Below, one piece after another: positions 3,909-37,602 of a stretch of 64,000 nt of DNA (within the stretch, counting starts at the first letter, position 1; every line of letters starts with the position of its first letter). The DNA is from an uncultured Gammaproteobacteria bacterium. Its GTDB lineage: Bacteria; Patescibacteriota; Patescibacteriia; Magasanikbacterales; JBBTQS01. Made by a program: the position numbers and the translations under genes. The stretch covers positions 310,359-374,358 of the forward strand of contig OZ246400.1 of assembly GCA_965230935.1 (NCBI GenBank), in the 5' to 3' direction. The notes under the pieces were generated by a model. It was not told the DNA's origin and ran no database searches. It saw only the letters and a program-made list of their open reading frames with translations.

Positions 3909-4048
3909 ATGAATATGTGCGTATCGTAGCGCAAAAAAAGCCAAGCGCCAAGTCCGTGTTACCAAACTTGGCGCCATGATATGTCGTTACCTCAATCGAC
4001 AAGTCCGCAGACTTGCAAACAGAAGTAATCACAGATCAGTTGGCTATC

Positions 4049-6941: not shown

Positions 6942-8215
6942 CTTGAGGCATTACTTGTGTGCGACGTGTCTTTTGCTGTGTACAACAATGAAGATGCCAC
7001 AATAACTCCGATAAACTTCATCAACAAGTGAGCAACAACAGCGCCGATCAAACCAAAATACTTGATCAGCGCCACACTTACCACAATCTGTAATACATTG
7101 GTCACCACAGAGAATTTATACAGCTGCCTTTTTTGACTATGCGCTTCAAGCGCAGCAACCGGCACATACACCAGTGCCCCAAACAATGAAAAAGCAAGCA
7201 CCTGTGTGAGAACAATTGAATCATGGTATTGCGGGAAGAAAAAATCAAAAATATACGGCGCAGCTACTGCATATGCGACTACTACTACCAACATAACCAG
7301 AGCAAATTTTGCCATTTTTGAAAAAAACACAATCTTAATCTCACGAAGCGGGCGAGAGGCGAATTTGGGCAATGCCATACGTGGGATGATTTTAAACAAT
7401 CCCTTCAACTGGTCCGGAATGGCGAGTGCAAACAAATACACAGCTGTATGTGTGGCGCCCAAATAATGAAACACGAGCACTTTGTCAATATGACTGGCTA
7501 ACGTATTAAACAAATTGATAATACTTAAGTGCTTGCTATAATTAAGCGAATACGTTTTTTTTTCTTTTTTGATTGCAAATCGCCTCACGGTTCTCCAATA
7601 TACCGCAATCCCGACTGCGGCCATGGAAATAAAGTATGCCAGCACCATTGGCAATAACGCGTCGCTCATAACCATGGTAACAAGGAGCACCATTGAGACC
7701 ACGGTATTGCTGAACAACCAATAGAGCACTGAAGTTTTAAAATCTTTGATTCCACCTAAAAAGGCGCTATACAACCCGGTACTATTAATCAACGGAGTAA
7801 ATACCGCGATGAGCACCATAGCAAAGGCCAACATGGCGTTGCCGGCAAATGAATAGTAAATCGCGGCACCAAGCGCAGCAATACTGATAGGAAAACTCCA
7901 ATACAAATTTTTGCGAAATGCAAAACGTAAAAATCCTTTTTGCCCGCGCGCCACTGCTTGTACCACAACCGTACCCAATCCGGTTAGAGAAAACGATCCT
8001 AAAATAGACGCGACCGACAAAACAAACTTGTAACTACCATATACTTGCTGTGTTAGTAGGTTTGCATAGGCAATTGACATGACAAATGCGGTCAAGGCAG
8101 TGAGTGTTTGTGAGAGTACCAACCATGACCCACCTTTAGCAAGGTAGACCATATCCGTTTTAAAATATCGCTCACTTGAACGGAGCAAACGATACAATGA
8201 TGATTGGCGTGGCAT
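6938..8215 (-). CDS. oligosaccharide/polysaccharide flippase (Wzx-like, MOP superfamily)
   Basis: 425 aa, about 12 predicted TM helices, N-terminal LAKGGSWLVLSQTLTALTAFVMSIAYANLL typical of Polysacc_synt/Wzx. Sits in the glycan locus. Confidence 0.65.
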   Translation of the reverse strand: MPRQSSLYRLLRSSERYFKTDMVYLAKGGSWLVLSQTLTALTAFVMSIAYANLLTQQVYGSYKFVLSVASILGSFSLTGLGTVVVQAVARGQKGFLRFAFRKNLYWSFPISIAALGAAIYYSFAGNAMLAFAMVLIAVFTPLINSTGLYSAFLGGIKDFKTSVLYWLFSNTVVSMVLLVTMVMSDALLPMVLAYFISMAAVGIAVYWRTVRRFAIKKEKKTYSLNYSKHLSIINLFNTLASHIDKVLVFHYLGATHTAVYLFALAIPDQLKGLFKIIPRMALPKFASRPLREIKIVFFSKMAKFALVMLVVVVAYAVAAPYIFDFFFPQYHDSIVLTQVLAFSLFGALVYVPVAALEAHSQKRQLYKFSVVTNVLQIVVSVALIKYFGLIGAVVAHLLMKFIGVIVASSLLYTAKDTSHTSNASS

Positions 8216-8219
8216 GATC

Positions 8220-9329
8220 TTATGATGTTATGCGCGCAATGGTCTTTTGCCATGCGACACATCCAGTATACCAGTCTTGTAAGGCTTTGCGTTGTGCATC
8301 GTCCCATTCTTCCAAACGCAACCACTGCTGTACCGCCTCAAGAATTTGGTCAAAACACTGCGTATACGTTGCACCGGTCAACTCAACCTCGCGTAGCAGT
8401 TCGCAAAATCGATCAGTGGTTTGCATTCCCATCCGTTCGGTATCATAGTCTTTAAAATAGTTGTGCGGATTGCGCTCCTGATTCACAATTGGCGTACCAT
8501 AGAGCACCAACTCACCCAAATGGTCTGTGATCTTACGCACAATATAACTTGCCCAAATATCATCATAGCGTCCAATAAACGGGCTCAAAAAGTATGCTGG
8601 CAACACGGCACGACTCATGCCGGTGTTTTGTGAATTAAACGGAGACCACGTACCATTTTGTAAGGTAAACTGTCCATCACGTTTGTATTCAGTAACCGTC
8701 ACCGGACATGAAAGCCGCTGGACCGCGTCAATATCTGGGTCATCCATCCAAAATCCTGCCACCACTGCACCAACGCCCTGCGCTTGCCCCCACTGCACAT
8801 CTTTGGCTTCTTCTCCTCGCATTTGTACTGGAAATCCCCGATGGTAAAATACTGCTCCGCGCTGTTCAGTAAGTTCGTCACACACATTAAACCAGCCGGT
8901 ACTGGTACTCACCGCGTCTGCTGCAGTCTGTTGTCCAATGGCAGCATACGCACCAAAGTAATCTTTTTCCAAAACAAAATTATCATCATCAATGGTAATA
9001 ATGACTTGTGCCCCAAGTTGATAGGCGCGCAACAATGAAACATTGCGGCGTTGAATACAATTCCACGGCAAATGTTCTAATAGTTCTGGAAAATCCTCCA
9101 AATATGCGTCTTGCGCTGGGGCATCATAATACTCGCAAGTGTACCCAAATTTTTCTTGCAATCCGGCAACAAACTCTCCAACCTCTGTTGGTGTTTTTTT
9201 ATCTCCGGTCACTACGACCACCAAATCATCTTTTGCCACACCATTGTCTTGCGCATTTTGCAAATACGCATCCAAAAGTTTTGGCACATAAATTGTAGTG
9301 GTCACTAAGGCAAATCGTGGAGTACTCAT
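8220..9329 (-). CDS. RGP / GT75-family protein (UDP-L-arabinopyranose mutase-like, reversibly glycosylated polypeptide family)
   Basis: Strong motif matches to plant RGP1: [14 protein letters not shown] vs [34 protein letters not shown] vs [31 protein letters not shown] vs RGYPFSLREG. The N-terminal [11 protein letters not shown] matches HLIIVQDGDPSK. Confidence 0.75.
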   Translation of the reverse strand: [369 protein letters not shown]

Positions 9330-10381
9330 AAAATATTTGGGTTATGAAGACGCTTATGCGCATGATCTAACACACGCTGAAGTCCTTCTTCTAAGCTAAT
9401 CTTTGGTTTCCATCCAAATGACATCACGCGAGATGGGTCGCCAAATCGGTTTTGAACACCAACTGGCTTGTCCAACAACTGTTTAATACCAGGTTCATAC
9501 CCTTCGAGTTTGGCATAGGTCTTACAAATCGTGTTAAAACTGGTGAGCACACCGGTACCAATGTTAACCCCACTGCCATCATGCACATGATCCAAAATCG
9601 TAATCATTGCCTCAACACAGTCATCGATATGAATAAAGTCGCGTGCTTGCTCACCAGTCCCCCACACCGTGAGCGGTGCCTCGTGCTTAGCAACGCGCAG
9701 AGCAATCGCCGGGACAGGATAACTTAGATCCTGATCCTCGCCATAGCCTGAAAAGGGTCGCACACAGGCAACCTTCATGCCGTATTGCTTCGCCGCCAAT
9801 GTACTTAAGTATTCACCGGTCAACTTACTCCATCCATACGTCATATCCGGTTGACCAACCGTACTTCCATCAAATGTAATCATTGACTCATCCAGCTTGG
9901 TGAACCCATCTTCTCCTTGCAATTGTGTTGGGTATGCGGCACTGGAACTTGCATACAACACCCGGTCAATCCGTTCTGGTTGACGCGTTGCCCACAAAAA
10001 GAATACCGCATCAATGCCCAAATCAGTTGCCACACGCATTGGATCACCATCAATCAACGCGCGACCACCGACAATCGACGCCAAATGATACACATCAGAA
10101 AATTCAGGCAATGTGTCGATTTGGTCGTTGGTTACGATGGTATATAAATAGGAAAGTAAATCACGATTTAAAAACGTAATAGTTGACTCACCCACATTGT
10201 AGATCACCTGCTGCTCATCTTGAGAACGTATCGTACCGCCAAGCCACACATCAGGATGTTTTCCAGTTGATAAATCATCAATAATCCAAAGGTCATGCCC
10301 GCGCTTGAGTAATGCAGACACCAAATGCCGGCCAACAAACCCACATCCTCCGGTAATTAAAATTGGTTTTTGCTTTTCCAT
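9326..10381 (-). CDS. NAD-dependent sugar-nucleotide epimerase/dehydratase (extended SDR)
   Basis: ILITGGCGFVGRHLV Rossmann motif, YASSSAAYP, and catalytic YGWSK (YxxxK). Overlaps the RGP-like gene by 4 nt, suggesting translational coupling. Confidence 0.7.
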   Translation of the reverse strand: MEKQKPILITGGCGFVGRHLVSALLKRGHDLWIIDDLSTGKHPDVWLGGTIRSQDEQQVIYNVGESTITFLNRDLLSYLYTIVTNDQIDTLPEFSDVYHLASIVGGRALIDGDPMRVATDLGIDAVFFLWATRQPERIDRVLYASSSAAYPTQLQGEDGFTKLDESMITFDGSTVGQPDMTYGWSKLTGEYLSTLAAKQYGMKVACVRPFSGYGEDQDLSYPVPAIALRVAKHEAPLTVWGTGEQARDFIHIDDCVEAMITILDHVHDGSGVNIGTGVLTSFNTICKTYAKLEGYEPGIKQLLDKPVGVQNRFGDPSRVMSFGWKPKISLEEGLQRVLDHAHKRLHNPNIL

Positions 10382-10382
10382 A

Positions 10383-11120
10383 TTATTTGGTAAATGTCTC
10401 TACCCGTTGCCATCGAATACGCCACGCTGGTGCCAGATAGCCCAACATGGTCGAGGTGTTATTATTTGATTCTCCTTCTTTGCGCGGCTTCCATGCTGAT
10501 GGCACTTCAGCAACTCGTGCCCCGCGACGCAATGGTTTGAGCAAACACTCCACTAAAAATGGATGCTTAAGTTCTTCCCATGTGATCCCCTCCAACACCT
10601 CGCGCCGATAGAGTCGAAATCCAAAGGTGAGATCAGTAAGCCGCACGCCATACAAGAGCGAAAAAAACTTTTGGAACACATAGTTTGCAACCATTTTAAC
10701 GGCGCCATACCCTTCAAACCCTCCGCCTTTGACCCAACGCGTGGTAGCCACAATATCTACATCGCCTTGTTGCATACGCGCCACCATGTCTTTGGCCGTT
10801 GCTGGATCGGTTTCAAGGTCTGATGACATGAGCAGTACGTAATTTTTTTGCGCTGCAGCAAATGCATCCTGCATTGCGCCACCCAGATATGATTTTTGCT
10901 GCTCAACCACGCGAATCTGCTCACCATACTGCTGCGTGAGCTGGGCAATCACCGCACGACTCTCTGATGTGGTTCGCTCAGGATGAATCACGATAAGGAT
11001 TTCTCCAATATATTGCGCATTTTCTTCCATCACAATATCAACGGTTTTTTGTAAAGAAAACGTCTCATTCATCACCGGAATCACTACTGAAATTGCATGC
11101 GTCAAATCAGGGGTATTCAT
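10383..11120 (-). CDS. GT2 glycosyltransferase, polyprenyl-phosphate sugar synthase-like (DPM1/ArnC-like)
   Basis: ISVVIPVMNE start typical of GT2. DLETD and ...GFRLYRREVL motifs. Start at Met 11120 (MNTPDL) is preceded by an AAGGA Shine-Dalgarno; the ORF-track start is 11171. Confidence 0.65.
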   Translation of the reverse strand: MNTPDLTHAISVVIPVMNETFSLQKTVDIVMEENAQYIGEILIVIHPERTTSESRAVIAQLTQQYGEQIRVVEQQKSYLGGAMQDAFAAAQKNYVLLMSSDLETDPATAKDMVARMQQGDVDIVATTRWVKGGGFEGYGAVKMVANYVFQKFFSLLYGVRLTDLTFGFRLYRREVLEGITWEELKHPFLVECLLKPLRRGARVAEVPSAWKPRKEGESNNNTSTMLGYLAPAWRIRWQRVETFTK

Positions 11121-11179
11121 GTTCCTTAGGGTATCAGAAGCCGATATGTGGGTCAATGAAAACTGGAACAACGCTCATT

Positions 11180-12769
11180 TTATTCTTCACCATCAAAATG
11201 AACAGTATACGCACGCAATGTGGAACCATGATAACTCAAATTATCAATTGAAAGATTTGTAATTTCTTGTAAATAGTCCTCAGGATTATCAATCCCAAGC
11301 AGTGGTCGGTATCGATATCCTAATGCAATATCATAATCAACATAATGCGTAATACCGACAGTTTTGAAAAACTCCCATAATTGCTTTTGTTTGATTGCTG
11401 TATAGGCATCGTGGTTCACTAAACCATCGCTGTTCATAATAAATCGATCAGACAAATACCCATAGATACCACTGTTAAATGAAGCGATCCTGGCATTTTC
11501 GGGTAAATTCTCGCGTATCCAATACGCGGCACGAATCATATCTTTCTCTGCAGGATACAACGGTAGTGCGGTTAATCCAGTACCAATAAAAAGTCCAGCA
11601 ATCCCAAGTGCCATAATCAATTGCATGCCGCGATTGCGTAGTGCTGACAATTGCGACCCAATCCACACCGCAACAAACACCAGCACAATTTGCGGGCCAA
11701 CAAAATACCACTCACGGGGTGTCCACCGGAGCGCGCCGTGGATCGCAACAAACAGGACACTAGCTACCATCACCATACCAATGTAGCGATTAGGAGCGTG
11801 TTGCCAATGCTTTCGCATCGCGGCAAAACGCTGTTTTGTGCGCAACCACTTGAGTGCAAGAGCGCCAAATGCAGCGTACACGAGCGCACCAATCGCCGTT
11901 TGCATTACCACCATATGGATGGCGAGTGCAAATTGATATGCAGACCAAATCAGCACCGTAGTGACGGTTCGATCTTTATAAAAAAACAACTGGCGATTAG
12001 TAAATGTAAGTGACAAACCACTTTCTTGTATTGGTGTACCTAAAGTGAAATAGCTCCACAGTACCCATGGGCTCAGCAGAAGGAAAAACGGAATAGAAAG
12101 ACTAAACGCCGTACGCCAAAATGCCCGTCGGTGATGCCACAAAAACCACAAGAAAATAACTCCAGGAAATACACCATAATCACTACGCGCAAGGGCAAGC
12201 AGCGCACCAAGTGCCCCCCACAAGGCAATACGTTTGATTGGCCAGCGATCCAGACCATAGATAATTGGAAAACCGATGAAGATTGCAAAGAGCATTATTG
12301 TGAGACTTGTTTCTAGCCCATTGAGCGCTGCAACCAACTGAAAAGGTGATAGTGCAACCAATGCCAACACCCACAGTGCTGCCCCAGCACGAAAGAGCTT
12401 GCGCGCAACACGATAGATCACCGCCAATGTTATTGCATCAAATAATGCTCCAAGAGTTACTAAAATATGCACCGGCAATGCATCACCTGCACCAGAGGTA
12501 AGCTTCATCACTCCTGTCACAATCCCCATCCACAATGGATGATATCCATTCGTCAAATGCAATCCATCAAATGTTGAGCCAAACCCTTCGGCGATATTTT
12601 GCCCAATTGCAAAATAATAAAATGAATCATCTGGCACAAACCATGCCGCCAACGTTTCGAGTGGCAACCAGGCAAGAATCAACCGCACCAGAAGCACTGC
12701 TGCAATTAAGCCAAAAGCAATCCGATCCACACGATCAGAGATGAACTTATTGTTTTTTCGCCAACACAT
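11180..12769 (-). CDS. GT-C fold membrane glycosyltransferase (PMT/ArnT-like, GT39/GT83-type)
   Basis: 529 aa with many TM helices and an N-terminal periplasmic-loop acidic motif (FVPDDSFYY). Paired immediately downstream of the GT2 polyprenyl-P-sugar synthase, the classic arrangement. Confidence 0.55.
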   Translation of the reverse strand: MCWRKNNKFISDRVDRIAFGLIAAVLLVRLILAWLPLETLAAWFVPDDSFYYFAIGQNIAEGFGSTFDGLHLTNGYHPLWMGIVTGVMKLTSGAGDALPVHILVTLGALFDAITLAVIYRVARKLFRAGAALWVLALVALSPFQLVAALNGLETSLTIMLFAIFIGFPIIYGLDRWPIKRIALWGALGALLALARSDYGVFPGVIFLWFLWHHRRAFWRTAFSLSIPFFLLLSPWVLWSYFTLGTPIQESGLSLTFTNRQLFFYKDRTVTTVLIWSAYQFALAIHMVVMQTAIGALVYAAFGALALKWLRTKQRFAAMRKHWQHAPNRYIGMVMVASVLFVAIHGALRWTPREWYFVGPQIVLVFVAVWIGSQLSALRNRGMQLIMALGIAGLFIGTGLTALPLYPAEKDMIRAAYWIRENLPENARIASFNSGIYGYLSDRFIMNSDGLVNHDAYTAIKQKQLWEFFKTVGITHYVDYDIALGYRYRPLLGIDNPEDYLQEITNLSIDNLSYHGSTLRAYTVHFDGEE

Positions 12770-14496: not shown

Positions 14497-15555
14497 ATGG
14501 AAAATCAAGACCCCAAAGCAATACTGATCACCGGCGGCGCCGGTTTTATTGGGAGCAATGTATTGCGCCATCTTTTCAAACAATTTCCCAACACACATTT
14601 TCACGTGTTAGACCTGCTCACCTATGCAGGAGATATTAAAAATATCGACGACGAAATTCATGATTCTGGTCGCTTTACCTTTTGGTATGGTGACATCCGC
14701 AATGAGCAGCTGGTAAACGAAATTATTGGTCGTTGTGAAATGGTAATTCATTTTGCAGCAGAAACCCATGTGGCACGCTCAATTTACGATGACGTCAAAT
14801 TTTTTGAAACTGATGTGCTGGGTACGCGTGCAATCGCAAATGCTGTTTTGCAGCATCGTGAGACCATCAAACGCTTTATCCATATTTCAACGTCCGAGGT
14901 GTATGGAACTGCTGACTACGAACCAATGGATACCAAACACCCGCTCAACCCAATGAGTCCATATGCTGCTGCAAAAGCAGGAGCAGATCGTCTGGTGTAT
15001 TCATACATGGCAACCTATAATTTACCAGCCACGATCATCCGTCCGTTTAACATCTATGGTCCGCATCAACATTTGGAAAAATTGATTCCACGCTTTATCA
15101 CGAGTGTGATGCTGGATGAACCAATGACCGTTCATGGAGACGGTAGCTCCCAGCGCGACTTTACCTATGTCGAGGATGTAGCACGCGCAATTGAACTCGT
15201 GCTGAAAGCACCGGATGAAAAAGTCCGTGGAGAAGTTTTCAATGTCGCCAGTGGAGTCGCTCGATCAGTACTTGAAATTGCGCAAAAGATCACCGAACTC
15301 TTTAAAGCACAAGAGAATCTAAAATTTAGTCCGACAACCATTAATGTTGGTGATCGTCCTGGGCAGGTCTTCAAGCATATTGGTGATGCCAGTAAAATTA
15401 AAGACGTCCTTGGCTGGGAACAACAGGTTAGTTTTGAAGAAGGACTTAAGCGCACCATGAACTGGTATGTTGAGCGTCGTGAGTGGTGGAAAGAAAAAAT
15501 TTGGATGCGACATGTAGAGATCCTCACCCAAGAAGGCACCAAAGAACTTCACTAA
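14497..15555 (+). CDS. NDP-hexose 4,6-dehydratase (dTDP/CDP-glucose 4,6-dehydratase family)
   Basis: ILITGGAGFIGSNV, VIHFAAETHVARS, STSEVYG, YAAAKAGADRLVYSY, IRPFNIYGPHQHLEKLIP all match the RfbB-type 4,6-dehydratase family. Nucleotide specificity not determinable. Confidence 0.7.
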   Translation: MENQDPKAILITGGAGFIGSNVLRHLFKQFPNTHFHVLDLLTYAGDIKNIDDEIHDSGRFTFWYGDIRNEQLVNEIIGRCEMVIHFAAETHVARSIYDDVKFFETDVLGTRAIANAVLQHRETIKRFIHISTSEVYGTADYEPMDTKHPLNPMSPYAAAKAGADRLVYSYMATYNLPATIIRPFNIYGPHQHLEKLIPRFITSVMLDEPMTVHGDGSSQRDFTYVEDVARAIELVLKAPDEKVRGEVFNVASGVARSVLEIAQKITELFKAQENLKFSPTTINVGDRPGQVFKHIGDASKIKDVLGWEQQVSFEEGLKRTMNWYVERREWWKEKIWMRHVEILTQEGTKELH

Positions 15556-15558
15556 TCT

Positions 15559-16503
15559 ATGGCAGCTCGACGAGCATTTATCACCGGGGCAAGTGGTTTT
15601 GTAGGTAGCAACCTTCTTCGTGCGCTGCTTGCTGATGGGTATGAAGTGCATGGTCTGGTGCGCGCAAAATCAGCATCTGCGTGGCGTTTACCCAGCGATG
15701 CCGCGAATCTTCATTTACATGAAGGCGATATTACTGACGAAAAATTTTTGACCCGAATTCTTAAAGAGATTGCACCACACGAAGTGTACCATCTGGCACA
15801 CTATGGTGGATATCGCGGGCAAGACGATGTGCGCATGATCCGAAACGTCTGCATTGATGGCACACAAGCGCTCTACAATGCTTGCGCCCAGATTAATAGC
15901 ATTGAAGGAATTGTCCATGCCGGGAGCTCATCTGAATATGGAGTGAAGCCAGAATCCATGCGCGAAGACATGGTGCTTGAACCACACACTGAATATGGCA
16001 TTGCCAAAGCATGGGCAACATTGTATGGGCAAATGTTGGCGCGCCAGAACATCTTACCAATCACAACGGTACGACTGTTTGCGGTGTACGGACCATACGA
16101 AGCAGCAACTCGCCTGGTGCCAGCTGCAGTATTAGCGGCGTTGCGCAACACTACGATGAATCTCTCTGACCCAACAGCCACTCGTGACTTTGTGTATATC
16201 GATGATGTAATTGCTGCACTACGCCTTGTGGCAACCGGAAAACATTCCGGAAGCATTTACAATATTGGTGGTGGGGCACAAACCACGATCAAAGATATGG
16301 TTGACCTGATCGCACAAGCGGCACATGTATCTTTAGACATACATATTGGAACCATTGCCGGACGAAACGCTGATGTTCCATTTTGGCAAGCAGATATCTC
16401 ACAGGCAACTGCAGAACTTGGCTGGAAACCAACACATACTCTTAAAGATGGCGTTGCAAAAACAGTTACCTGGTTTACCCAAAATCAAACCTTATACACC
16501 TAG
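15559..16503 (+). CDS. NAD(P)-dependent epimerase/reductase (SDR), probable deoxysugar 4-reductase/epimerase
   Basis: FITGASGFVGSNLLRALL Rossmann motif and YGIAKAW catalytic YxxxK. Follows the 4,6-dehydratase with a 3-nt gap. Confidence 0.6.
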   Translation: MAARRAFITGASGFVGSNLLRALLADGYEVHGLVRAKSASAWRLPSDAANLHLHEGDITDEKFLTRILKEIAPHEVYHLAHYGGYRGQDDVRMIRNVCIDGTQALYNACAQINSIEGIVHAGSSSEYGVKPESMREDMVLEPHTEYGIAKAWATLYGQMLARQNILPITTVRLFAVYGPYEAATRLVPAAVLAALRNTTMNLSDPTATRDFVYIDDVIAALRLVATGKHSGSIYNIGGGAQTTIKDMVDLIAQAAHVSLDIHIGTIAGRNADVPFWQADISQATAELGWKPTHTLKDGVAKTVTWFTQNQTLYT

Positions 16504-16507
16504 TATT

Positions 16508-17329
16508 ATGGCGCAAAAGCTCAACACTACAGAACTCACCACGGCTGCCCGCGAAGTACGCGAGCTTATTTTGCGTACTGCAGCGCGCACCGGAGTGATC
16601 CATATTGGCTCCTCCCTTTCCCCTGTTGATCTGCTTGTTGCACTGTACTACGAAATAATGAACATTGACCCATCTGCTCCTAAAGATCCTAATCGCGATC
16701 GGTTTATCTTAAGCAAAGGCCATGGTGGACTCAGCCAATACGCAGTACTCGCTATGCGAGGCATTATGCCAATGCACCAACTTGATGAGTACATGAAAGA
16801 TAATAGTCTTTTGCCGGTTCACCCGGTACTTAATTCAGCTCCTGGAATTGAAGCAACGACCGGTTCACTTGGTCATGGATTAGGTATTGCCGTTGGTATG
16901 GCACTAGCCGCGAAAAAAAATAAGGCCGATTGGCGAACCTTCACCATCTTAAGCGATGGTGAGTGCGACGAAGGTTCAACTTGGGAAGCTGCGCTGTTGG
17001 CCGGTCACTTACAACTTGATAATTTGGTGGTCATGGTGGACTACAATAAAATTCAAGGCTTTGGAAACACTAAAGACATCTTGGATCTAGAACCATTTGC
17101 CGACAAATGGCGTGCAGCTCGATTTGCAGTTCAAGAAATCGACGGCCACAACTTTGACGAAATTATGCCAGCACTGCGCAACCTTCCATTATCCTCCGGC
17201 AAACCAACTGCGCTTATTTGTCACACGGTTAAAGGGAAAGGAATCCCCTACATGGAAAACACGCTCAAATGGCATTATAGCAATCTAAAACCTGAGGATC
17301 TTGATACGACGCTCGATCAATTGTCCTAG
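16508..17329 (+). CDS. transketolase, N-terminal (TPP-binding) subunit
   Basis: HIGSSLSPVDLLVALYY, DRFILSKGHGGLSQY, GSLGHGLGIAVGMA, DGECDEGSTWEA. Start taken at Met 16508, directly after the upstream stop; the ORF-track start at 16346 overlaps the previous gene. Confidence 0.75.
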   Translation: MAQKLNTTELTTAAREVRELILRTAARTGVIHIGSSLSPVDLLVALYYEIMNIDPSAPKDPNRDRFILSKGHGGLSQYAVLAMRGIMPMHQLDEYMKDNSLLPVHPVLNSAPGIEATTGSLGHGLGIAVGMALAAKKNKADWRTFTILSDGECDEGSTWEAALLAGHLQLDNLVVMVDYNKIQGFGNTKDILDLEPFADKWRAARFAVQEIDGHNFDEIMPALRNLPLSSGKPTALICHTVKGKGIPYMENTLKWHYSNLKPEDLDTTLDQLS

Positions 17330-17334
17330 TCCCT

Positions 17335-18258
17335 ATGCGCAACACCTTTATTGCTCAACTGACTGAATTTGCAAAACAAAACCCAGATGCAATGCTACTC
17401 ACTGGTGATCTTGGCTATAATGCCTTTGAGACATTTATGCAAGAACTTCCGGAGCAGTACTTGAATGTTGGTGTTGCAGAACAAAGTTTGATCAGTGTTG
17501 CTGCCGGTTTGGCACTGAGCGGCAAGAAAGTATTTTGCTATTCAATCTCCACCTTTGCGACCATGCGTGCGTATGAACAAATCCGCAATGACATTGCCTA
17601 TCAAAATTTGCCAGTGGTGATTATCGGTGGCGGAAGCACGTTTAGTTACAGCGTGCTTGGGTGCACCCATTTTCCGATGGAAGACATTGCGATTATGCGC
17701 GCACTCCCGAACATGCATGTGCTGTGCCCCGGTGATCCGCATGAGGTGAAACAGCTTATGCAACAAGTCTGTACTCTTGATGCACCGGTGTACATGCGTA
17801 CAGCAAAACGTGGAGAACCAATGGTTCATCCGGCGGATACACCAATTACACTAGGGAAGGCGGCGATGCTTCAAGATGGTACTGATGTGACTCTTGCGGT
17901 CAGTGGCCGACAATTGCCATTTGTTATGCAAGCAGCTGAGCAACTCCAAAAAGAGCACGGAATGAGTGTCCGGGTATTGAGTTTTCACACAATCAAACCG
18001 CTTGACACTCAAGCGATTCTTGATGCAGCAAAAGACACAAGCGGAATTGTGACGATTGAAGAACATTTGATTACCGGAGGTTTTGGTAGTGCTGTCGCCG
18101 AAGTATTGGCTGACGCCACTGTAAACACCACGCTTAAGCGCATTGCCGTAGCAGATGAATTTCCAAAAGGAATCGGGACGCAAGAGTATATGCTTGAGCA
18201 ATATGGCATCACCATAGAAAACATGGTGGCGCAAGCATTGGCTATTGTACAAAAATAG
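17335..18258 (+). CDS. transketolase, C-terminal (pyrimidine-binding / C-terminal domain) subunit
   Basis: GVAEQSLISVAAGLALSGK and VVIIGGGSTFSYSVLGCTH. Split-transketolase partner of the preceding gene. Confidence 0.75.
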   Translation: MRNTFIAQLTEFAKQNPDAMLLTGDLGYNAFETFMQELPEQYLNVGVAEQSLISVAAGLALSGKKVFCYSISTFATMRAYEQIRNDIAYQNLPVVIIGGGSTFSYSVLGCTHFPMEDIAIMRALPNMHVLCPGDPHEVKQLMQQVCTLDAPVYMRTAKRGEPMVHPADTPITLGKAAMLQDGTDVTLAVSGRQLPFVMQAAEQLQKEHGMSVRVLSFHTIKPLDTQAILDAAKDTSGIVTIEEHLITGGFGSAVAEVLADATVNTTLKRIAVADEFPKGIGTQEYMLEQYGITIENMVAQALAIVQK

Positions 18259-18260
18259 GT

Positions 18261-19433
18261 ATGCCAAAGGTTTTCATTATTGTGAATGAACTCCTGCGCG
18301 GCGGTGCTCAGCGCATTATTCTTGATCTGGCAAAATCCATTCCACGCGATCAGTTTGCATTACACATTGTGATGTGTAAATCAAAAGATAGTTTTCCAAA
18401 CGATGTTTCATCACTGCAAGATGAATTTGCTAAGATAGATATTCCGGTAATCTCTCTTGAGGGTGGCAAACGCTTTTCATTTGCTGAATTTCGTCGACTG
18501 GTGAGACTACTCAAAAAAGAAAAGCCTGACATTGTGCATACCTTCCTCCCCTACGCCGGAACCATGGGACGTATTGCAGCCAAGCTCGCTGGTGTGCGCT
18601 GTGTCATCAGCACCAAGTGCAATCTTCCGGTCGCCTATAGCAAAAAAGTATATTGGTTGGACAAACTCACACTATGGTTAGCTGATACGTGGATTGGAGC
18701 AACTGAGGGAATTGAGCTGCATTATGGCAAGTCAAGTAAGCGCTTCTCGCAAAAACTTTGGAATGCCGGTCGTCGACACTTTACTATTGTCGCCGGTGTA
18801 GATACGACAACACTTCAAGGGGTGCAAAACGCTATTGATTACACTGCCAAACGTGCACAAATTGATGTTCCATCAGACGCCACCATGATCTTCACCACAG
18901 CACGGCTCATCTCATGGAAAGGAATCAACTATGCAATTGATGCATTGCACAAACTTGATGCAAACACGCATTTGGTAATCGCCGGCTGGGGACCTCAAGA
19001 AGCTGAATTACGCGAGCAAGCCAATACTCTTGGTCTGACCGACCGGGTTCATTTTCTGGGAAGTCGTGATGATATCTACGAACTTTTGGCAGTTGCTGAC
19101 ATCTATGTGCAAACCTTTGCTACGATGCCGGATGGCAAACTATGGGTTGGTCCAAATACGTCACTTATTGAAGGAGCTGCCAGTGGAATCCCAGTAGTCT
19201 GCACACATGTACCACTCATTGAGCAGTTGATTGAAGATGGAATTACTGGCAAACTAGCTGATGTAAATAGTGCAGAATCATTGGCCCAAGCAATCACCTG
19301 GTGCACTGATCATCCAAAACAAGCACAAGGACTTGCACGTGCTGCACAGCAACGAGTTCACGAAAAATATTCAATCACGGCAATGAGCACACAAACGCAA
19401 CAGCTCTATAGCGCCTGTCTTAATCAGACATAA
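18261..19433 (+). CDS. GT4 glycosyltransferase
   Basis: C-terminal EGAASGIPVVCT GT4 (E-x7-E region) signature, 390 aa. Confidence 0.65.
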   Translation: MPKVFIIVNELLRGGAQRIILDLAKSIPRDQFALHIVMCKSKDSFPNDVSSLQDEFAKIDIPVISLEGGKRFSFAEFRRLVRLLKKEKPDIVHTFLPYAGTMGRIAAKLAGVRCVISTKCNLPVAYSKKVYWLDKLTLWLADTWIGATEGIELHYGKSSKRFSQKLWNAGRRHFTIVAGVDTTTLQGVQNAIDYTAKRAQIDVPSDATMIFTTARLISWKGINYAIDALHKLDANTHLVIAGWGPQEAELREQANTLGLTDRVHFLGSRDDIYELLAVADIYVQTFATMPDGKLWVGPNTSLIEGAASGIPVVCTHVPLIEQLIEDGITGKLADVNSAESLAQAITWCTDHPKQAQGLARAAQQRVHEKYSITAMSTQTQQLYSACLNQT

Positions 19434-19443
19434 TTACAACACT

Positions 19444-20661
19444 ATGGCAGAAAAAACAACATTCACTCCAGGAGAAGACTGGGTATGGTACAGTCGCGCG
19501 ATGTACAGCGACCGCGAAATTGCCGCTGTAGTTGAGTCACTGAGCAGCGATTGGCTTGTACCAGGAGCCTACAGTGAACAATTTGAAAACGCAGTGGCTG
19601 ATATGTTTGGGCAAAAGGTTGGTCTATTTGTCAACTCAGGTTCATCAGCAAACCTCCTTGCTATAGAAGCACACAATTTACCAAAAGGCGGCGAAGTGAT
19701 CACCCCAGCATGTACATTTTCTACAGTGGTGAACCCGCTTTTGCAATGTGGACTGACTCCGGTGTTTGTTGATGTAGCGCTTGATACCTACAACACCAAT
19801 CTTGATCTGCTTGAAGATGCCATTACTGACAAGACCGTTGCACTCATGATTCCACATCTGGTGGGAAACTTGAATGATGTCAAACGACTTCGTGGTATTG
19901 CTGATAAACACAACCTTATTTACATAGAGGATAGTTGCGATACCATTGGCGGAACGATCAATGGAGAAAAAACCGGAACCTATGCTGATGCCAGTACCAC
20001 TAGTTTTTATGCATCACACATTATTACCGCTGCAGGAGGCGGTGGCATGGTCATGTTTAAAGACCCAGATAAGGCACGACGATCAAAAGTACTTCGTGAC
20101 TGGGGCCGTGCACTTCCAGAACACAAAGATGAAGGAGCAGATAAACGCTTTACCTTTACCCTCAATGGCAAACCACATGATGGTAAGTTTGTCTTTACTG
20201 AGCGCGGATACAACCTCAAGCCAATTGATTTACAAGCAGCGTTTGGTTTAGTGCAACTTGATCGACTTGAAGAATTTAATGTGATTCGACAGACGAATTT
20301 CAAAACACTGCGTGATTTTTTTGCGCAATTTCCAGAACATTTTATTTTGCCACATGAACTTAATGGCGCTGACACCCGCTGGCTTGCCTATCCACTTCAT
20401 ATTAAAGAAGATTCACCACTGGATCGTAAATCACTCATGTCACACCTTGAAGCACACAAAATCCAAACGCGAGTGCTCTTTTCCGGAAACATCCTCCATC
20501 ATCCTGCATACGCTAACATCCCCCACCGCGTCCATGGTGAACTTCCCAACGCTGATGCAATCTTAAGTAATGCTATGCTGCTTGGCGCCCATCATGGTAT
20601 GCGCCAAGCACATCTTGATTATGTCATGCAGGTACTCAGTGATTATCTTAAAGCGCTCTAG
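19444..20661 (+). CDS. DegT/RfbH/ColD-family PMP-dependent sugar 3-dehydratase (His replaces the Schiff-base Lys)
   Basis: SGSSANLLAIEA (RfbH-like). Active-site segment SFYASHIITAAGGGGMV has His where aminotransferases of this fold have Lys, as in E1/ColD 3-dehydratases. Confidence 0.6.
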   Translation: MAEKTTFTPGEDWVWYSRAMYSDREIAAVVESLSSDWLVPGAYSEQFENAVADMFGQKVGLFVNSGSSANLLAIEAHNLPKGGEVITPACTFSTVVNPLLQCGLTPVFVDVALDTYNTNLDLLEDAITDKTVALMIPHLVGNLNDVKRLRGIADKHNLIYIEDSCDTIGGTINGEKTGTYADASTTSFYASHIITAAGGGGMVMFKDPDKARRSKVLRDWGRALPEHKDEGADKRFTFTLNGKPHDGKFVFTERGYNLKPIDLQAAFGLVQLDRLEEFNVIRQTNFKTLRDFFAQFPEHFILPHELNGADTRWLAYPLHIKEDSPLDRKSLMSHLEAHKIQTRVLFSGNILHHPAYANIPHRVHGELPNADAILSNAMLLGAHHGMRQAHLDYVMQVLSDYLKAL

Positions 20662-20664
20662 GTC

Positions 20665-21828
20665 TTGCGCATAAATATCATGAACAAACCACGCATTGCC
20701 ATTGTTACTTCTTGCATGGATAACCGCCCTGCCCGTGGGACGGCACTGGTTGCGCGTCGGTTTGTTGAACGCCTTGAACAGTATCGTGATCAGTTTGACT
20801 TCACCCTCATCCACCACAACAAAACAGAGGACCCGATCTATCAGCAATACCCGGAACTTATTATCCCAAATGTGTGGTTTCCATTTGGAAGAACCATGTG
20901 TAATGAAATGCTCTTTTGGTTTACGCATCGGTTTTCTCGAGCCAAATTTGATGTGGTGCATTATCTTCAACCACGTGTCTGGCCATCGTATCTCCTCAGC
21001 CACACAAAACGCATTGTGCTTACCCCGCATGATGCCGGAATTATGCTTAACCTTTCCCCAATTGGCATGGGCGAACGCCTATTTCGTTTTACAAATCGAC
21101 GACTCAACTGGCGCATGAATAATCTCATCGCGGTTTCTGAATTTGCAAAACAAGAAATTGCTGATACCTATCATATTGATGACAAAAAAATCACCGTGGT
21201 ATACAACGGTGTTGATAATCATATGCAGCCGGTTGAACAAACTACGTCAACACACACACTACTTAAAACTAAATATGGAATTACACAACCATACATCCTC
21301 TCTGTCGGACGAATGACACCACACAAAAATATTCTCACACTGCTTGATGCCTACGCAGCGTTACGCGCAAAGGGTTGTGCTGAATCACTCGTGCTTGTTG
21401 GCGGGCGACATCTTTCCAAATACTCCAGCCAAGTTGAACAAAAGATCAATGATCTATATTTGCAAACGCACGTACATATTGCACCCTATATCGAACCGGA
21501 AGATCTACCATTAGTGTATAGTGCTGCTGCAGTTCTCGTATATCCCTCACTTCACGAAGGATTTGGCTTACCGATGCTTGAAGCAATGGCATGCCATACA
21601 CCAGTAGTTGCGAGCAATGCCACGTCTTTGCCAGAAATCGCTGGCAATGCTGCGCTCTTGTGTGACCCAACAAACACGGAGGCAATTACAGATGCACTCC
21701 ACCACGTACTTACTGATACACACATGCAGCAAGACCTTGTTTCCAAAGGAAAAAAGCGTGTGCAGCAGTTTACTTGGGATCGATCAACACAAGCCATTAT
21801 CTCTTTGTATAAGACATTAACAGCATAA
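20665..21828 (+). CDS. GT4 glycosyltransferase
   Basis: EGFGLPMLEAMACHTPVVASN GT4 motif. Confidence 0.65.
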   Translation: MRINIMNKPRIAIVTSCMDNRPARGTALVARRFVERLEQYRDQFDFTLIHHNKTEDPIYQQYPELIIPNVWFPFGRTMCNEMLFWFTHRFSRAKFDVVHYLQPRVWPSYLLSHTKRIVLTPHDAGIMLNLSPIGMGERLFRFTNRRLNWRMNNLIAVSEFAKQEIADTYHIDDKKITVVYNGVDNHMQPVEQTTSTHTLLKTKYGITQPYILSVGRMTPHKNILTLLDAYAALRAKGCAESLVLVGGRHLSKYSSQVEQKINDLYLQTHVHIAPYIEPEDLPLVYSAAAVLVYPSLHEGFGLPMLEAMACHTPVVASNATSLPEIAGNAALLCDPTNTEAITDALHHVLTDTHMQQDLVSKGKKRVQQFTWDRSTQAIISLYKTLTA

Positions 21829-21831
21829 GCT

Positions 21832-22872
21832 ATGCGCCTTTTATTTATCACTCAAAAACTTGACCGTAATGATGATGTCTTAGGATATATGCATCGCTGG
21901 ACCGAAGCGATTGCGAAACGTTTTGAGCACACCATTGCACTATGTTTGCAAAAAGGTGACGTAGCTCTCCCACCCAACATCGTAGTCCATTCATTAGGTA
22001 AAGAAACAAAACCGTCACGGTGGTCGTATGTGCGCAAACTATTTTCTCTGGCGTGGCGTGAACGGAAAAACTATGATGTGGTGTTTGTGCACATGAACAT
22101 TGAATATCTTCTTTTGTGCGGCTGGTTATGGAAACTATGGGGTAAGAAGATTGTTTTGTGGTACAACCACAAAGATGGAAATCTTAAAGTAAATATTGCG
22201 CGTCTGTTTACTGATGTCGTCATGCACACTTCAGAACATGCGTACACTGCGCGATTTTCAAATCACAAACAAATGCCAGTGGGAATTGATACTGATGCAT
22301 TTGTTCCACAAGAGCAGCTACCACCGGTCAACACCATTCTCTCTATTGGAAGAATTGCCCCGGTCAAACATATCCATACGCTTATTGAGGCGGTTCAACA
22401 CCTTACCAACGAAGGTGTTAAGGTAAAACTTGATATCTACGGAAGTGCTCTTGAGCGCGACAAAGCATATGATGAACAAATCCGCGCACAATCACACGAA
22501 CTCCGAGCAAAAGGAATTGTTGAATTCCACGGATCGATTGCAAACCGACACAGCCCCCCGCTTTTTGCAAGCCATGGTATTACCGTCAATATGAGTCCCG
22601 ATGGCCTGTTCGACAAGGTAATTTCCGAAGGAATGGCTTGTGGTGGTTTGGTGCTTATCACCAACACCTCCATGAAAATTTTGCCAGAGTACTGCGTTTT
22701 TACGCTTGCTGATGCCAAAGACATGGCTGAAAAATTTAAAATACTTTTTGCACTACCTGATGAAAAACGCCGCGAACTTGGACAACAATTTCGTCAGCAC
22801 ATTATTGAAATCCACAGCCTCAAACGTGTGGTGGATGAAATTATGAATTCAGTCAACGCCTTGCAGAAATAG
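21832..22872 (+). CDS. GT4-like (GT1-fold) glycosyltransferase
   Basis: SEGMACGGLVLITN motif. N-terminal glyco_trans_4-like region. Confidence 0.5.
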   Translation: MRLLFITQKLDRNDDVLGYMHRWTEAIAKRFEHTIALCLQKGDVALPPNIVVHSLGKETKPSRWSYVRKLFSLAWRERKNYDVVFVHMNIEYLLLCGWLWKLWGKKIVLWYNHKDGNLKVNIARLFTDVVMHTSEHAYTARFSNHKQMPVGIDTDAFVPQEQLPPVNTILSIGRIAPVKHIHTLIEAVQHLTNEGVKVKLDIYGSALERDKAYDEQIRAQSHELRAKGIVEFHGSIANRHSPPLFASHGITVNMSPDGLFDKVISEGMACGGLVLITNTSMKILPEYCVFTLADAKDMAEKFKILFALPDEKRRELGQQFRQHIIEIHSLKRVVDEIMNSVNALQK

Positions 22873-26038: not shown

Positions 26039-27205
26039 ATGGCTAAAACTAGGAATAAAAAAACTATTGGACTGGTAATTACCCAAGGGAAATGGGGAGG
26101 TGCCCAACGGTATGTATTTGATCTGGCGACCCATCTTGCGACTCGCTATCGAGTTGTAGTAAGCATTGGTACACAACATGGATCACAGACACTCCAAAAT
26201 CGTTTACATGATTTTGTACAATCACACCCAACTGTTGATATTACCGTTACCCTATTAAATCATCTGCAACGAGCAATTAATCCATGGCATGATCTACGTG
26301 CCATTACTGAATTGCGCCAATGGGTGGCTACGAACCATATTGATCTTGTGCATTATAACAGTAGTAAGGCGGTAGTTATTGGTGCACATGCAAGTCGCGG
26401 CACGATTCCACAAATTGCCACGATCCATGGGTGGCCGTCACAAGAACTACTCTCGCCAATGCGTTCGTGGCTATATCGATTACTTGAAAAACGAGCAAGT
26501 CGCGCACTCGATGCACTGATCACGATTGACTTAACGTCGTCACGTATTGCTCAAGACAAGTATGGGCTTCCAAAGAAAAAGGTACACCACATCGCACACA
26601 GGATTGCACCTATTGATTTTCTGCCGCGCGATGACGCCAGGGAACAATTTGAACAACTCACTGGCCAATCATTATCCAACAAATATTGTGTCGGTACGAT
26701 TGCCAATCATTATCCAACAAAGCGTCTTTCCTTATTTATTGATGGACTCGCACAATTTATCACGCAAAAGAAGGATATTGTCGGATTGATTATTGGTGAT
26801 GGACCACAGCGCCACGCGTTACAACAACAGATTAATACGCTGAACATGCAAGACCACATCTTTTTACTTGGTCATCAAGATAATGCCGCGCGCCTCCTTA
26901 AAGGATTTGATCTGTTTGCGTTAAGTTCTGCTAAAGAAGGGTATCCGTATGTGCTCCTTGAAGCACAGCAAGCCGAACTTCCAATCGTAAGCACGGCAGT
27001 TGGTGGATGTATCGACATTCTCCAAAATTCTCCAACTGGCTTTTTAGTTGATACTCCAATCCCTGAAGTATTTGCTCACACGCTAGCGCAAGCACGTGTG
27101 CAACATACCTACCCAACAAAAACCCTCAACACACCACCACAACAGGCACTAGACTCCATGATTGAGCAAACTACCACACTCTACGAATCTTTCTTAGCGT
27201 CCTGA
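26039..27205 (+). CDS. GT4 glycosyltransferase
   Basis: KEGYPYVLLEAQQAELPIVSTAVGG. Confidence 0.65.
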   Translation: MAKTRNKKTIGLVITQGKWGGAQRYVFDLATHLATRYRVVVSIGTQHGSQTLQNRLHDFVQSHPTVDITVTLLNHLQRAINPWHDLRAITELRQWVATNHIDLVHYNSSKAVVIGAHASRGTIPQIATIHGWPSQELLSPMRSWLYRLLEKRASRALDALITIDLTSSRIAQDKYGLPKKKVHHIAHRIAPIDFLPRDDAREQFEQLTGQSLSNKYCVGTIANHYPTKRLSLFIDGLAQFITQKKDIVGLIIGDGPQRHALQQQINTLNMQDHIFLLGHQDNAARLLKGFDLFALSSAKEGYPYVLLEAQQAELPIVSTAVGGCIDILQNSPTGFLVDTPIPEVFAHTLAQARVQHTYPTKTLNTPPQQALDSMIEQTTTLYESFLAS

Positions 27206-29262: not shown

Positions 29263-29265
29263 AAA

Positions 29266-31515: not shown

Positions 31516-31522
31516 ACTGGAG

Positions 31523-37454: not shown

Positions 37455-37602
37455 AGATAAGTTTCCTTTCTTGTTAATTTTTTTGACTATGCTACCCCCT
37501 TTGGGTCGACCTTTCAGCCGCATAGTATTGTGTCTCCCTCAATCATTTATATAGAGATACACATGTATCGTCACAACGTGCATGACGACGACATCTATAT
37601 CA

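Follow-up and report, generated by a model that had tools for sequence, protein, structure and literature searches.

Yersinia pseudotuberculosis makes yersiniose A through DdhA-D followed by YerE and YerF, with YerE attaching activated acetaldehyde to CDP-3,6-dideoxy-4-keto-glucose (PMC12247030). The dehydratases E1 and SpnQ require four cysteines plus a reductase, whereas ColD has no such cysteines and proceeds by hydrolysis plus glutamate transamination (reviewed in PMC8987622). For miharamycin and amipurimycin biosynthesis, split transketolases (TKs) have been proposed to transfer a hydroxyacetyl unit to keto-sugars (PMC12247030), and 13 TKs from Streptomycete biosynthetic gene clusters likewise (Krug et al. 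2024, as summarised there). TKs normally take aldehyde acceptors, and acceptance of a ketone is unproven even in the Streptomyces cases (PMC12247030).

The locus described here lies in a 64-kb window (the whole stretch of DNA analysed) and is predicted to share the early logic of the yersiniose A pathway, namely 4,6-dehydration and PMP/His-dependent 3-deoxygenation, as well as its late logic of ThDP-dependent C–C bond formation at the C4 ketone and subsequent reduction of the branch. In contrast, its carboligase is a split member of the transketolase family while YerE belongs to the decarboxylase family (TPP_enzyme_N/M/C), so that the C2 unit is probably hydroxylated; its 4,6-dehydratase is RmlB-like and not of the CDP-glucose type, its 3-dehydratase lacks an Fe-S cluster, and no E3 accompanies it. 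The miharamycin and amipurimycin TKs resemble the window TK in context, being split, located in sugar-tailoring clusters and proposed to attack keto-sugars, with neither characterised in vitro. However, they belong to actinomycete secondary-metabolite clusters and nucleoside-type sugars, whereas the window TK belongs to a cell-surface glycan operon of the Patescibacteria and to a multi-phylum clade.

Operon organisation

Eight genes, all on the + strand and 2-10 nt apart, occupy positions 14497-22872 and most likely form a single operon within a patescibacterial (CPR) surface-glycan locus. An RmlB-like NDP-hexose 4,6-dehydratase (14497..15555; 352 aa, GDP_Man_Dehyd/Epimerase) and an NAD(P)-dependent extended SDR (15559..16503; 314 aa) precede a TK-like alpha subunit carrying the ThDP diphosphate-binding PP domain (16508..17329; Transketolase_N, E 2e-49) and a beta subunit with an altered acceptor pocket (17335..18258; Transket_pyr and Transketolase_C), a domain content that bears out the earlier identification of a split TK pair. 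These are followed by a GT4 glycosyltransferase (18261..19433; Glycos_transf_1, E 1.5e-27), a predicted DegT-fold, PMP-dependent NDP-4-keto-6-deoxyhexose 3-dehydratase (19444..20661; DegT_DnrJ_EryC1, E 4e-87), a second GT4 enzyme identified by domain search (20665..21828) and a GT4-like protein that matches Glycos_transf_1 in its C-terminal domain only (21832..22872; E 3e-13) and whose gene, the last of the block, begins 3 nt past the preceding one. The sequence-only reading had placed its open reading frames correctly and its listed genes stand, but its module omitted the GT4 gene at 18261-19433 and stopped short of the two GT4 genes that carry the unit on to 22872. For the alpha subunit, the ATG at 16508 agrees with homologue lengths of 262-280 aa; the mechanical reading frame opens at TTG 16346, and the publicly annotated product is 293 aa long. 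A Komeilibacteria genome has the genes in identical order, and the order SDR–TKN–TKC–GT4–DegT is conserved among related loci.

The 4,6-dehydratase scored 317 bits against TIGR01181 (dTDP-glucose 4,6-dehydratase), under the cut-off of 365, but only 70 bits against the CDP-type TIGR02622 and 83 bits against gmd, and its best PDB matches were all dTDP-glucose 4,6-dehydratases (2HUN, 227 bits). Its catalytic motif is STSEVYG where RmlB has STDEVYG, and STSEVYG was found in all orthologues checked (64-65% identity), both in TK-type loci (L001, L032) and in a locus with a YerE-type carboligase (L091). The change from TDE to TSE makes the substrate, and even the exact reaction, uncertain. The SDR carries a Gly-rich NAD motif and YGIAK and matched RmlB, GalE and Rmd equally at ~100 bits, with no specific family; homologues lie directly upstream of TK-N in L001, L005-7, L010, L011, L022, L032 and others, and L091 encodes one at 35%. 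We propose that it reduces the branch carbonyl in a YerF-like role, the weakest step of the model. As it has no diagnostic family, it could alternatively be a 4-ketoreductase or epimerase, in which case a plain 3,6-dideoxyhexose could result.

The GT4 enzyme encoded at 18261 is a candidate transferase for the product sugar, and its orthologues (45-50%) directly follow TK-C in L001 and L005. The GT4 gene at 20665 is a conserved partner just downstream of the dehydratase gene: a GT4 gene also follows DegT in L001 (46%) and L091, while in L005 a 48% homologue is encoded on the other strand, a few kb upstream. The earlier statement that the module holds neither a nucleotidyltransferase nor an E3 reductase was upheld: the sugar-1-phosphate nucleotidyltransferase motif GGxGTRL is absent from the 64-kb window in all six frames, and a regular-expression search for the plant-ferredoxin-type E3 motif, a weak test, found no match. 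An RfbF-like cytidylyltransferase is encoded in 11 related loci outside the window's lineage.

Linkage and exchange of carboligases

Across many phyla, 65 of 80 TK loci had DegT and/or SDR genes no more than 3 kb from the TK pair, and the remaining 15 had neither within that distance. DegT genes were concentrated around the TK, with a density of 1.74 per 10 kb over the nearest 2 kb versus 0.08-0.27 beyond, and 18 of the DegT neighbours within 3 kb were His-type dehydratases. In three sister CPR loci with no TK, a Cys-less dehydratase (59-68% identity) adjoins a 600-618 aa TPP_enzyme_N/M/C carboligase whose best PDB match is 8RPH, followed by AHAS, and one of these loci (L091) also has an orthologue of the 4,6-dehydratase and a homologue of the SDR. 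In these sister loci, a YerE-type ThDP carboligase thus takes the place of the TK beside the same Cys-less dehydratase.

Proposed pathway to a branched sugar

We propose, with a probability of about 0.6, that the operon follows a yersiniose-like route to synthesise and transfer a C4-branched 3,6-dideoxyhexose, the C2 branch being added by the TK. Judging from family membership, the RmlB-like dehydratase would convert an NDP-hexose, supplied by a nucleotidyltransferase encoded elsewhere, to an NDP-4-keto-6-deoxyhexose. His192 of the DegT protein would form the PMP ketimine and eliminate the 3-OH, and because this protein has neither an Fe-S cluster nor an E3 partner, the reaction would probably finish in a ColD-like manner, with enamine hydrolysis yielding NDP-3,6-dideoxy-4-ketohexose and ammonia and with PMP regenerated from an amino acid. 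The alpha2beta2 TK-like enzyme would then load a C2 ketol unit onto ThDP, with hydroxypyruvate or a ketose phosphate as the likely donor since the donor histidines, including the H100 equivalent, are retained. Addition of this unit (probably hydroxyacetyl) to the C4 ketone would give a 4-C-hydroxyacetyl tertiary alcohol, a step suggested by the synteny, by the changes in the acceptor pocket and by the replacement of the TK with YerE-type enzymes in sister loci. Finally, the adjacent SDR would reduce the carbonyl of the branch, as YerF does, leaving a 1,2-dihydroxyethyl group, and the embedded GT4 enzymes would install the sugar. Two-carbon transfer to a keto-sugar, giving a branched or chain-extended product, had been suggested before; the DegT/SDR linkage and the YerE-type exchange support the transfer. 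Since the module can create a carbonyl at C4 only, a branch there is more likely than chain extension.

Alternatively, the TK may act on the nucleotide sugar in another way, using an acetyl donor, a C3-keto isomer or an aldehyde acceptor for chain extension, with the SDR serving as a ring ketoreductase or epimerase. The specificity of the remodelled pocket is unreadable from sequence, Lys-type DegT aminotransferases lie beside the TK in 11 loci and suggest varied downstream chemistry, and the SDR is as close to epimerases as to 4-reductases. However, the H100 position is Phe in pyruvate-using DXPS (PMC7661550), so retention of the histidine favours a hydroxylated C2 donor and argues against acetyl transfer. 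In addition, the module has no enzyme to form a C6 aldehyde or 3-keto isomer, and for the YerE-type enzymes that stand in for the TK in sister loci, attack on the C4 ketone is established (PMC12247030). We therefore consider such chemistry unlikely.

A predicted 3-dehydratase related to E1

The DegT protein is 41% identical to E1/RfbH, and its best match is E1/RfbH/DdhC (CDP-6-deoxy-L-threo-D-glycero-4-hexulose 3-dehydrase, PDB 3BCX; E 4e-88), with which it shares the SFY-xx-H spacing, though its score of 391.6 bits against the NCBIfam RfbH model NF011936 is below the cut-off of 423. ColD (GDP-4-keto-6-deoxymannose 3-dehydratase, PDB 2GMS; E 1e-53) is far more distant (185 bits versus 299 for E1). 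The translation contains both the RfbH-like motif SGSSANL, as previously reported, and SFYASHIITAAGGGG. His192 aligns with the catalytic His220 of E1, in a column that is Lys in the E1 H220K mutant structure 3BB8; a phmmer alignment with ColD puts it one column off, but with the downstream GEGG spacing as anchor it corresponds to ColD His188. All 120 best DegT homologues have this His, making 121 of 121 clade sequences with the window protein counted, so the claim that His replaces the PLP-binding Lys is confirmed.

The 21-residue Fe-S loop of E1 is represented by RDWGRALPEHKDEGADKRF, in which all four [2Fe-2S] cysteines are gone; the protein's only cysteines are C90, C102 and C165, and in all 120 homologues Cys is absent from the loop. 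The loss of these cysteines implies that no E3 reductase is needed and accounts for its absence. The protein also differs from E1 systems in being partnered with a non-CDP-type 4,6-dehydratase. With ColD it shares His for Lys, a Ser–His pair and the lack of both an Fe-S cluster and a reductase partner, and ColD's hydrolysis with glutamate recycling is the known route open to an Fe-S-free His enzyme. Its earlier assignment as an E1/ColD-type 3-dehydratase thus holds for the E1-like sequence but not for E1's Fe-S cysteines, and we infer ColD-type chemistry. As ColD is so much more distant than E1, the Fe-S-free state probably arose independently inside the E1 lineage.

The Cys-less protein might instead be aminotransferase-like (SpnQ-type C4 transamination) or dependent on an external reductant, and not a catalytic 3-dehydratase. 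SpnQ does transaminate without its reductase (PMC8987622), and the sub-threshold RfbH score and the alteration of GEGG to AGGG are consistent with such a role. However, we regard it as highly unlikely, as E1 and ColD do not catalyse this transamination in similar conditions (PMC8987622), the His is invariant across the clade, and a 4-amino sugar would offer the adjacent TK or YerE-type carboligases no carbonyl to attack.

A transketolase clade with a remodelled acceptor pocket

The closest solved structure to the TK is the split enzyme of Carboxydothermus hydrogenoformans (alpha subunit versus the 6YAK N chain, 233 bits; beta subunit versus 6YAJ, 195 bits), which shares its alpha2beta2 split and its ThDP and donor residues. 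Alpha-subunit H32, H72, H105, D150 and N180 correspond to E. coli H26, H66, H100, D155 and N185, each kept by 60-61 of the 61 clade members, and the beta subunit retains E49 (=E411), F74 (=F437), H112 (=H473) and R2 (=R358). In contrast, H461, D469, F434, S385 and R520, all present in the genuine C. hydrogenoformans TK, are replaced by G100, L108, I71, N29 and K158. H461 and D469, which hold the acceptor sugar phosphate, are retained in canonical TKs but give way to Gly and a hydrophobic/non-Asp residue in 60 of 61 clade members. As R358 and a basic residue at R520 are kept, the acceptor may be phosphorylated. The variant TKs are monophyletic (bootstrap 100/100) in a tree with only three canonical outgroups (E. 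coli TktA, the C. hydrogenoformans split TK and the canonical split TK of L012), and they span many phyla and occur in large genomes such as those of Bradyrhizobium, Planctomycetota and Acidobacteriota, which would ordinarily also have a standard full-length TK.

That this is an ordinary pentose-phosphate TK lying in a glycan locus by chance, with a plain 3,6-dideoxyhexose as product and the SDR as 4-ketoreductase, is the least probable reading: CPR genomes are small and frequently encode split TKs, homologues are publicly named simply 'transketolase', the closest structure is a genuine split TK, the ThDP and donor residues are intact and one relative (L004) encodes the dehydratase without a neighbouring ThDP enzyme, but the altered acceptor residues, the separate clade and its presence in large genomes, the tight DegT and SDR linkage with conserved gene order, and the co-occurrence of a canonical and a variant pair in L012 all argue against it. 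Clustering with housekeeping TKs, which would have undercut the sequence-only reading, was not seen, and by its residues and phylogeny the window TK is a specialised, non-housekeeping enzyme. In the sugar-branching role proposed for this type of TK, it would serve to build an unusual C4-branched 3,6-dideoxyhexose for the cell surface of this patescibacterium.

Operon organisation and genomic setting

Much of the window (~5-51 kb), which belongs to a Patescibacteria (CPR) genome, is occupied by a large glycan locus encoding four Wzy_C proteins and a flippase as well as methyltransferases and many glycosyltransferases of the GT4 and GT2 families. An operon of eight + strand genes lies inside this locus at 14497-22872; the genes are divergent from the upstream minus-strand genes and are separated from one another by gaps of just 2-10 nt. 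These genes encode an RmlB-like 4,6-dehydratase (14497-15555), an extended SDR (15559-16503), the alpha (TK-N; Transketolase_N; 16508-17329) and beta (TK-Pyr/C; Transket_pyr/Transketolase_C; 17335-18258) subunits of a split transketolase (TK), a GT4 glycosyltransferase (18261-19433), a DegT protein (19444-20661; PF01041, E = 4e-87) and two further GT4 enzymes, whose genes extend to 22872. The Pfam matches are all very strong, so chance is no concern. All module genes listed in the sequence-only reading were present, but that list had left out the GT4 gene lying between the TK and DegT genes. In the public annotation, TK-N is 293 aa long, implying a start at ~16448 and an overlap with the SDR gene. 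However, a 273-aa product is favoured by evidence around the TK-N start (16346-16510), as homologues are 262-280 aa long and an ATG at 16508 stands 4 nt past the SDR stop.

Several other genes of the glycan locus can be assigned to families. An RGP family protein (PF03214, plant 'reversibly glycosylated polypeptide', UDP-arabinopyranose mutase-like) is encoded at 8220-9329, and the RGP-SDR-GT2-flippase block is conserved between the window and a Komeilibacteria locus (L001, RGP-type gene at 16401-17495 of that locus). The Wzy_C (O-antigen ligase/polymerase) domain occurs in three consecutive large membrane proteins of 693, 778 and 678 aa (27181-33559), two of which carry C-terminal TPR repeats, and in a fourth protein 16 kb away (49922-51424); four such paralogues are unusually many for a genome of ~0.9 Mb. 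The sole nucleotidyltransferase-like gene found in the window (1056-1763) encodes a cytidylyltransferase nearest to PseF (pseudaminic acid cytidylyltransferase; 118 bits versus a cut-off of 205.7), which may point to a nonulosonic or ulosonic acid as a component of the same glycan.

Elsewhere in the window, a 5.5-kb stretch (51600-57200) has a G+C content of 58-63% versus ~45% for the genome and contains long ORFs that overlap on both strands, for example at 51595-53724 (+) and 51634-53649 (-). It had no Pfam, NCBIfam, rRNA or other Rfam match and only two tiny tandem repeats. An rRNA operon was rejected as the cause of the high G+C because no rRNA was found, and the stretch could be of foreign origin or encode an unusual protein. 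A 1275-aa ORF at 33696-37523 had no Pfam match, and a tmRNA gene with the tag ANVYSRVKGAIAQAFSTPSFAPVVA is located at 61962-62350.

A 3-dehydratase of E1-like descent lacking Fe-S cysteines

The best solved relative of the DegT protein is the Fe-S 3-dehydrase E1 (RfbH/DdhC; PDB 3BCX; E = 4e-88, 41% identity, 299 bits), followed by the Fe-S-free 3-dehydratase ColD (E ~1e-53, 185 bits), and its score of 391.6 bits against the NCBIfam RfbH model NF011936 falls just short of the cut-off of 423. Like E1, it combines a DegT (fold-type I aminotransferase) domain with a His in place of the Schiff-base Lys. This substitution, claimed from sequence alone, was confirmed by alignment: His192 corresponds to His220 of E1, a column in which the structure of the H220K mutant (3BB8) has Lys. 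The RfbH-like motif SGSSANL noted in the same reading was likewise found in the translation, as was SFYASHIITAAGGGG. In contrast, the four-Cys [2Fe-2S] motif of E1 (C-X57-C-X1-C-X7-C) is absent from the window protein; the counterpart of the E1 Fe-S loop, RDWGRALPEHKDEGADKRF, contains no Cys, and the whole protein has three (positions 90, 102 and 165). Retention of the His and a loop devoid of Cys were common to all 120 of the 120 closest homologues (50-100% identity). The closest of those carrying a source name derive from Komeilibacteria, Yanofskybacteria, Taylorbacteria, Uhrbacteria and similar lineages, and the homologues are labelled simply as "aminotransferase" in public databases. Searching metagenomes with the DegT protein alone yielded just four short loci, which were uninformative.

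Both E1 and SpnQ require a four-Cys [2Fe-2S] cluster and a reductase (PMC8987622), and the missing Fe-S cysteines rule out a mechanism of this kind, with E3 as the reductase partner, for the window enzyme. ColD requires neither cluster nor reductase, the reaction being completed by hydrolysis with glutamate-driven regeneration of PMP (PMC8987622). The window enzyme resembles ColD in its His at the Lys position and in lacking both an Fe-S cluster and a reductase partner in the window, but differs in scoring nearer to E1 and in its neighbouring dehydratase, which is well below the gmd cut-off (83 versus 415 bits). From these sequence features, we infer an enzyme of E1-like descent with a ColD-like mechanism. 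The absence of an E3 reductase from the module, as originally claimed, is expected for a protein without Fe-S cysteines, and no ferredoxin-type match was found in the window. The regular expression used (plant-type ferredoxin motif plus RxYS) is a weak and largely uninformative test for E3, as it gave zero matches in the window and all loci, even beside Cys-containing E1 homologues. The accompanying claim that the module lacks a nucleotidyltransferase also held, with no GGxGTRL motif within the 64-kb window, and the window further differs from E1/RfbH/DdhC systems in having no RfbF/RfbG-type CDP-glucose genes. No mention of Fe-S-free E1 homologues was found in the literature.

The first gene of the operon matched the dTDP-type 4,6-dehydratase profile at 317 bits, versus 70 for the CDP type and 83 for gmd. 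Its STSEVYG motif contains a TSE catalytic triad, as in GMD/UXS-type enzymes, and suggested a UXS/ArnA-type decarboxylase, although this alternative was set aside on the scores (RmlB 317 versus 102 bits). Owing to this motif, the substrate of the RmlB-like enzyme is still uncertain.

A transketolase clade with altered acceptor residues

Among solved structures, the one nearest to the window TK is that of the C. hydrogenoformans enzyme (ChTK), a genuine split TK. Alignment of 61 TK-N and TK-C pairs with E. coli TktA and ChTK (E. coli numbering) showed that H26, H66, H100, D155, N185, E411, F437 and H473 were kept in 60-61 of the 61 pairs. In the window TK, the ThDP/Mg and donor positions H32, H72, H105, D150 and N180 of the alpha subunit are present, as are E49 (the cofactor-activating Glu) and H112 of the beta subunit. 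Pyruvate-using DXPS has Phe at the H100 position (PMC7661550), and the His found here favours a hydroxylated C2 (ketol) donor. Other active-site positions, among them the acceptor- and phosphate-binding H461, D469, S385 and R520, were changed across the family: H461 is replaced by Gly in 60 of 61 pairs and F434 by Ile in 59, D469 by Leu, Phe, Ala, Tyr or Gln (Asp in just one sequence), while S385 and R520 are variable. The corresponding residues of the window beta subunit are G100 (H461), L108 (D469), I71 (F434), N29 (S385) and K158 (R520). The combination of Gly and non-Asp occurs in 60 of 61 pairs, whereas His and Asp are retained in E. coli TktA, in ChTK and in the canonical pair of a Micrarchaeota locus (L012). 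The latter, the lone exception to the Gly signature, is a second, canonical-type split TK situated 3 kb from a variant pair. The two pairs of this locus (6502-8319, -, and 10001-11756, +; one of each type, ≤3 kb apart) adjoin an RfbF-like gene and an E1-type dehydratase with four Cys.

Clustering with housekeeping Tkt, the outcome the sequence-only reading had set against its own proposal, was not observed. The variant clade was monophyletic relative to a thinly sampled outgroup of three canonical TKs in 100/100 NJ bootstraps. A housekeeping TK (EC 2.2.1.1) was rejected from the active site, the tree and synteny. Homologues in public databases are labelled simply as "transketolase".

Genomic linkage to deoxysugar genes

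Scanning GTDB species representatives with a TK-N alignment identified at least 595 relatives. The best 80 of these (45-61% identity) include members from Patescibacteria, Omnitrophota, Planctomycetota, Acidobacteriota and Bradyrhizobium and from DPANN/archaeal genomes, Methanoperedens and Micrarchaeota among them. TK-N was followed by TK-C in every locus, often with an SDR gene directly upstream and DegT genes alongside; a DegT and/or SDR gene lay within 3 kb of the TK in 65 of the 80 best loci. Across these loci, DegT density fell from 1.74 per 10 kb within 2 kb of the TK to 0.08-0.27 farther out. DegT neighbours within 3 kb comprised 18 His-type and 11 Lys-type proteins, and in the non-CPR His-type neighbours the E1 motif is complete (SFYPAHHIT with 3-4 Cys). 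An RfbF-like cytidylyltransferase was present in 11 loci, and the window gene order was exactly matched in one Komeilibacteria genome.

Lys-type DegT proteins (true aminotransferases) flank the variant TK in L008, L018, L021, L026, L031, L042, L045, L051, L052, L054 and L057, some of these loci also holding an E1-type gene, which suggests amino-modified forms of the branched sugar. The variant pair also occurs in many Bradyrhizobium species (L063, L069, L070, L073, L075, L079, L080 and L082), where two SDR genes lie upstream and the downstream gene aligns with DegT solely over two distinct segments of ~180 aa (34-36%).

Proposed sugar-branching pathway

The strongest argument for TK-catalysed branching of the dehydratase product is that two unrelated ThDP carboligase families share one slot beside the same dehydratase. 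In three further CPR loci (L091-L093), the same Cys-less dehydratase (59-68% identity) occurs without a TK and is directly adjoined by a TPP_enzyme_N/M/C protein of 600-618 aa (L091 2001-3857, L092 5034-6866 and L093 5071-6873), which in the PDB matches 8RPH best and acetohydroxyacid synthases next. Its domain architecture is of the YerE type. During yersiniose biosynthesis, it is YerE that attaches activated acetaldehyde at the C4 ketone of CDP-3,6-dideoxy-4-keto-glucose (PMC12247030), and this pathway has the same logic as the route proposed here. L091 additionally encodes an orthologue of the STSEVYG dehydratase (64%) and an SDR homologue (35%). The window TK differs from YerE-like carboligases in having Transketolase_N and Transket_pyr/Transketolase_C instead of TPP_enzyme_N/M/C domains, and would thus be YerE-like in proposed function while lying outside the YerE family. 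A further relative (L004) encodes the dehydratase and neither ThDP enzyme, indicating that the dehydratase can serve unbranched sugars too. L092 and L093 also have genes for a B12-binding radical SAM protein and a NUDIX protein close by, and a NUDIX gene is present at 3420-3977 of the window.

In the proposed pathway, an NDP-hexose would be converted to a 4-keto-6-deoxy sugar and then, by ColD-like chemistry, to a 3,6-dideoxy-4-keto sugar, to which the TK would add a two-carbon unit to give a 4-C-hydroxyacetyl adduct; use of a ketone acceptor would be new to TK biochemistry. The SDR could reduce this to a 4-C-(1,2-dihydroxyethyl) sugar, for transfer by the GT4 enzymes; the role of the SDR is the weakest link of the model. 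The sequence-only reading had proposed two-carbon transfer onto a keto-sugar, giving either a branched or a chain-extended product. The swap with a YerE-type enzyme supports branching, while chain extension is less favoured, as C4=O is the sole carbonyl that the module can create.

YerE-type and PDH-E1-type enzymes are known to branch deoxysugars in a ThDP-dependent manner, while TK-type branching has been published solely as an untested proposal, for miharamycin, amipurimycin and 13 Streptomycete clusters, and hydroxyacetyl transfer to a ketone has been demonstrated in vitro for no sugar-branching split TK (PMC12247030). As defined in that review, the window likewise has a split-gene TK within a keto-sugar-generating cluster. 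Literature searches for TKs in O-antigen, capsule, rfb or glycosylation-island loci returned nothing relevant beyond PMC12247030, and we found no account of such branching TKs from surface-glycan loci or from organisms other than actinomycetes.

Implications

The most far-reaching interpretation, to which we assign a probability of about 0.45, is that a large, unrecognised TK-derived clade (H461 to Gly, D469 to hydrophobic, F434 to Ile) C-branches NDP-keto-sugars for cell-surface glycans and is coupled in CPR to a new, Fe-S-independent branch of the E1 3-dehydratase family. The expected products would then be 3,6-dideoxyhexoses carrying a hydroxyacetyl or dihydroxyethyl branch, as yet undescribed in any polysaccharide. 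With a clear sequence signature and defined partner enzymes, the window and 80 related loci offer many candidates with which to probe TK branching, of relevance to deoxysugar enzymology, biocatalysis and CPR metabolic reconstruction. For example, a ketone-accepting, hydroxyacetyl-delivering TK would be valuable for the biocatalytic synthesis of functionalised tertiary alcohols and, if its Fe-S cluster has been lost, the E1-like 3-dehydratase would represent a natural experiment on the interconversion of E1 and ColD mechanisms. For metabolic reconstructions of CPR, the database label "transketolase" is not valid evidence of a pentose phosphate pathway. Elaborate surface sugars would also represent an investment made by these genome-reduced bacteria.
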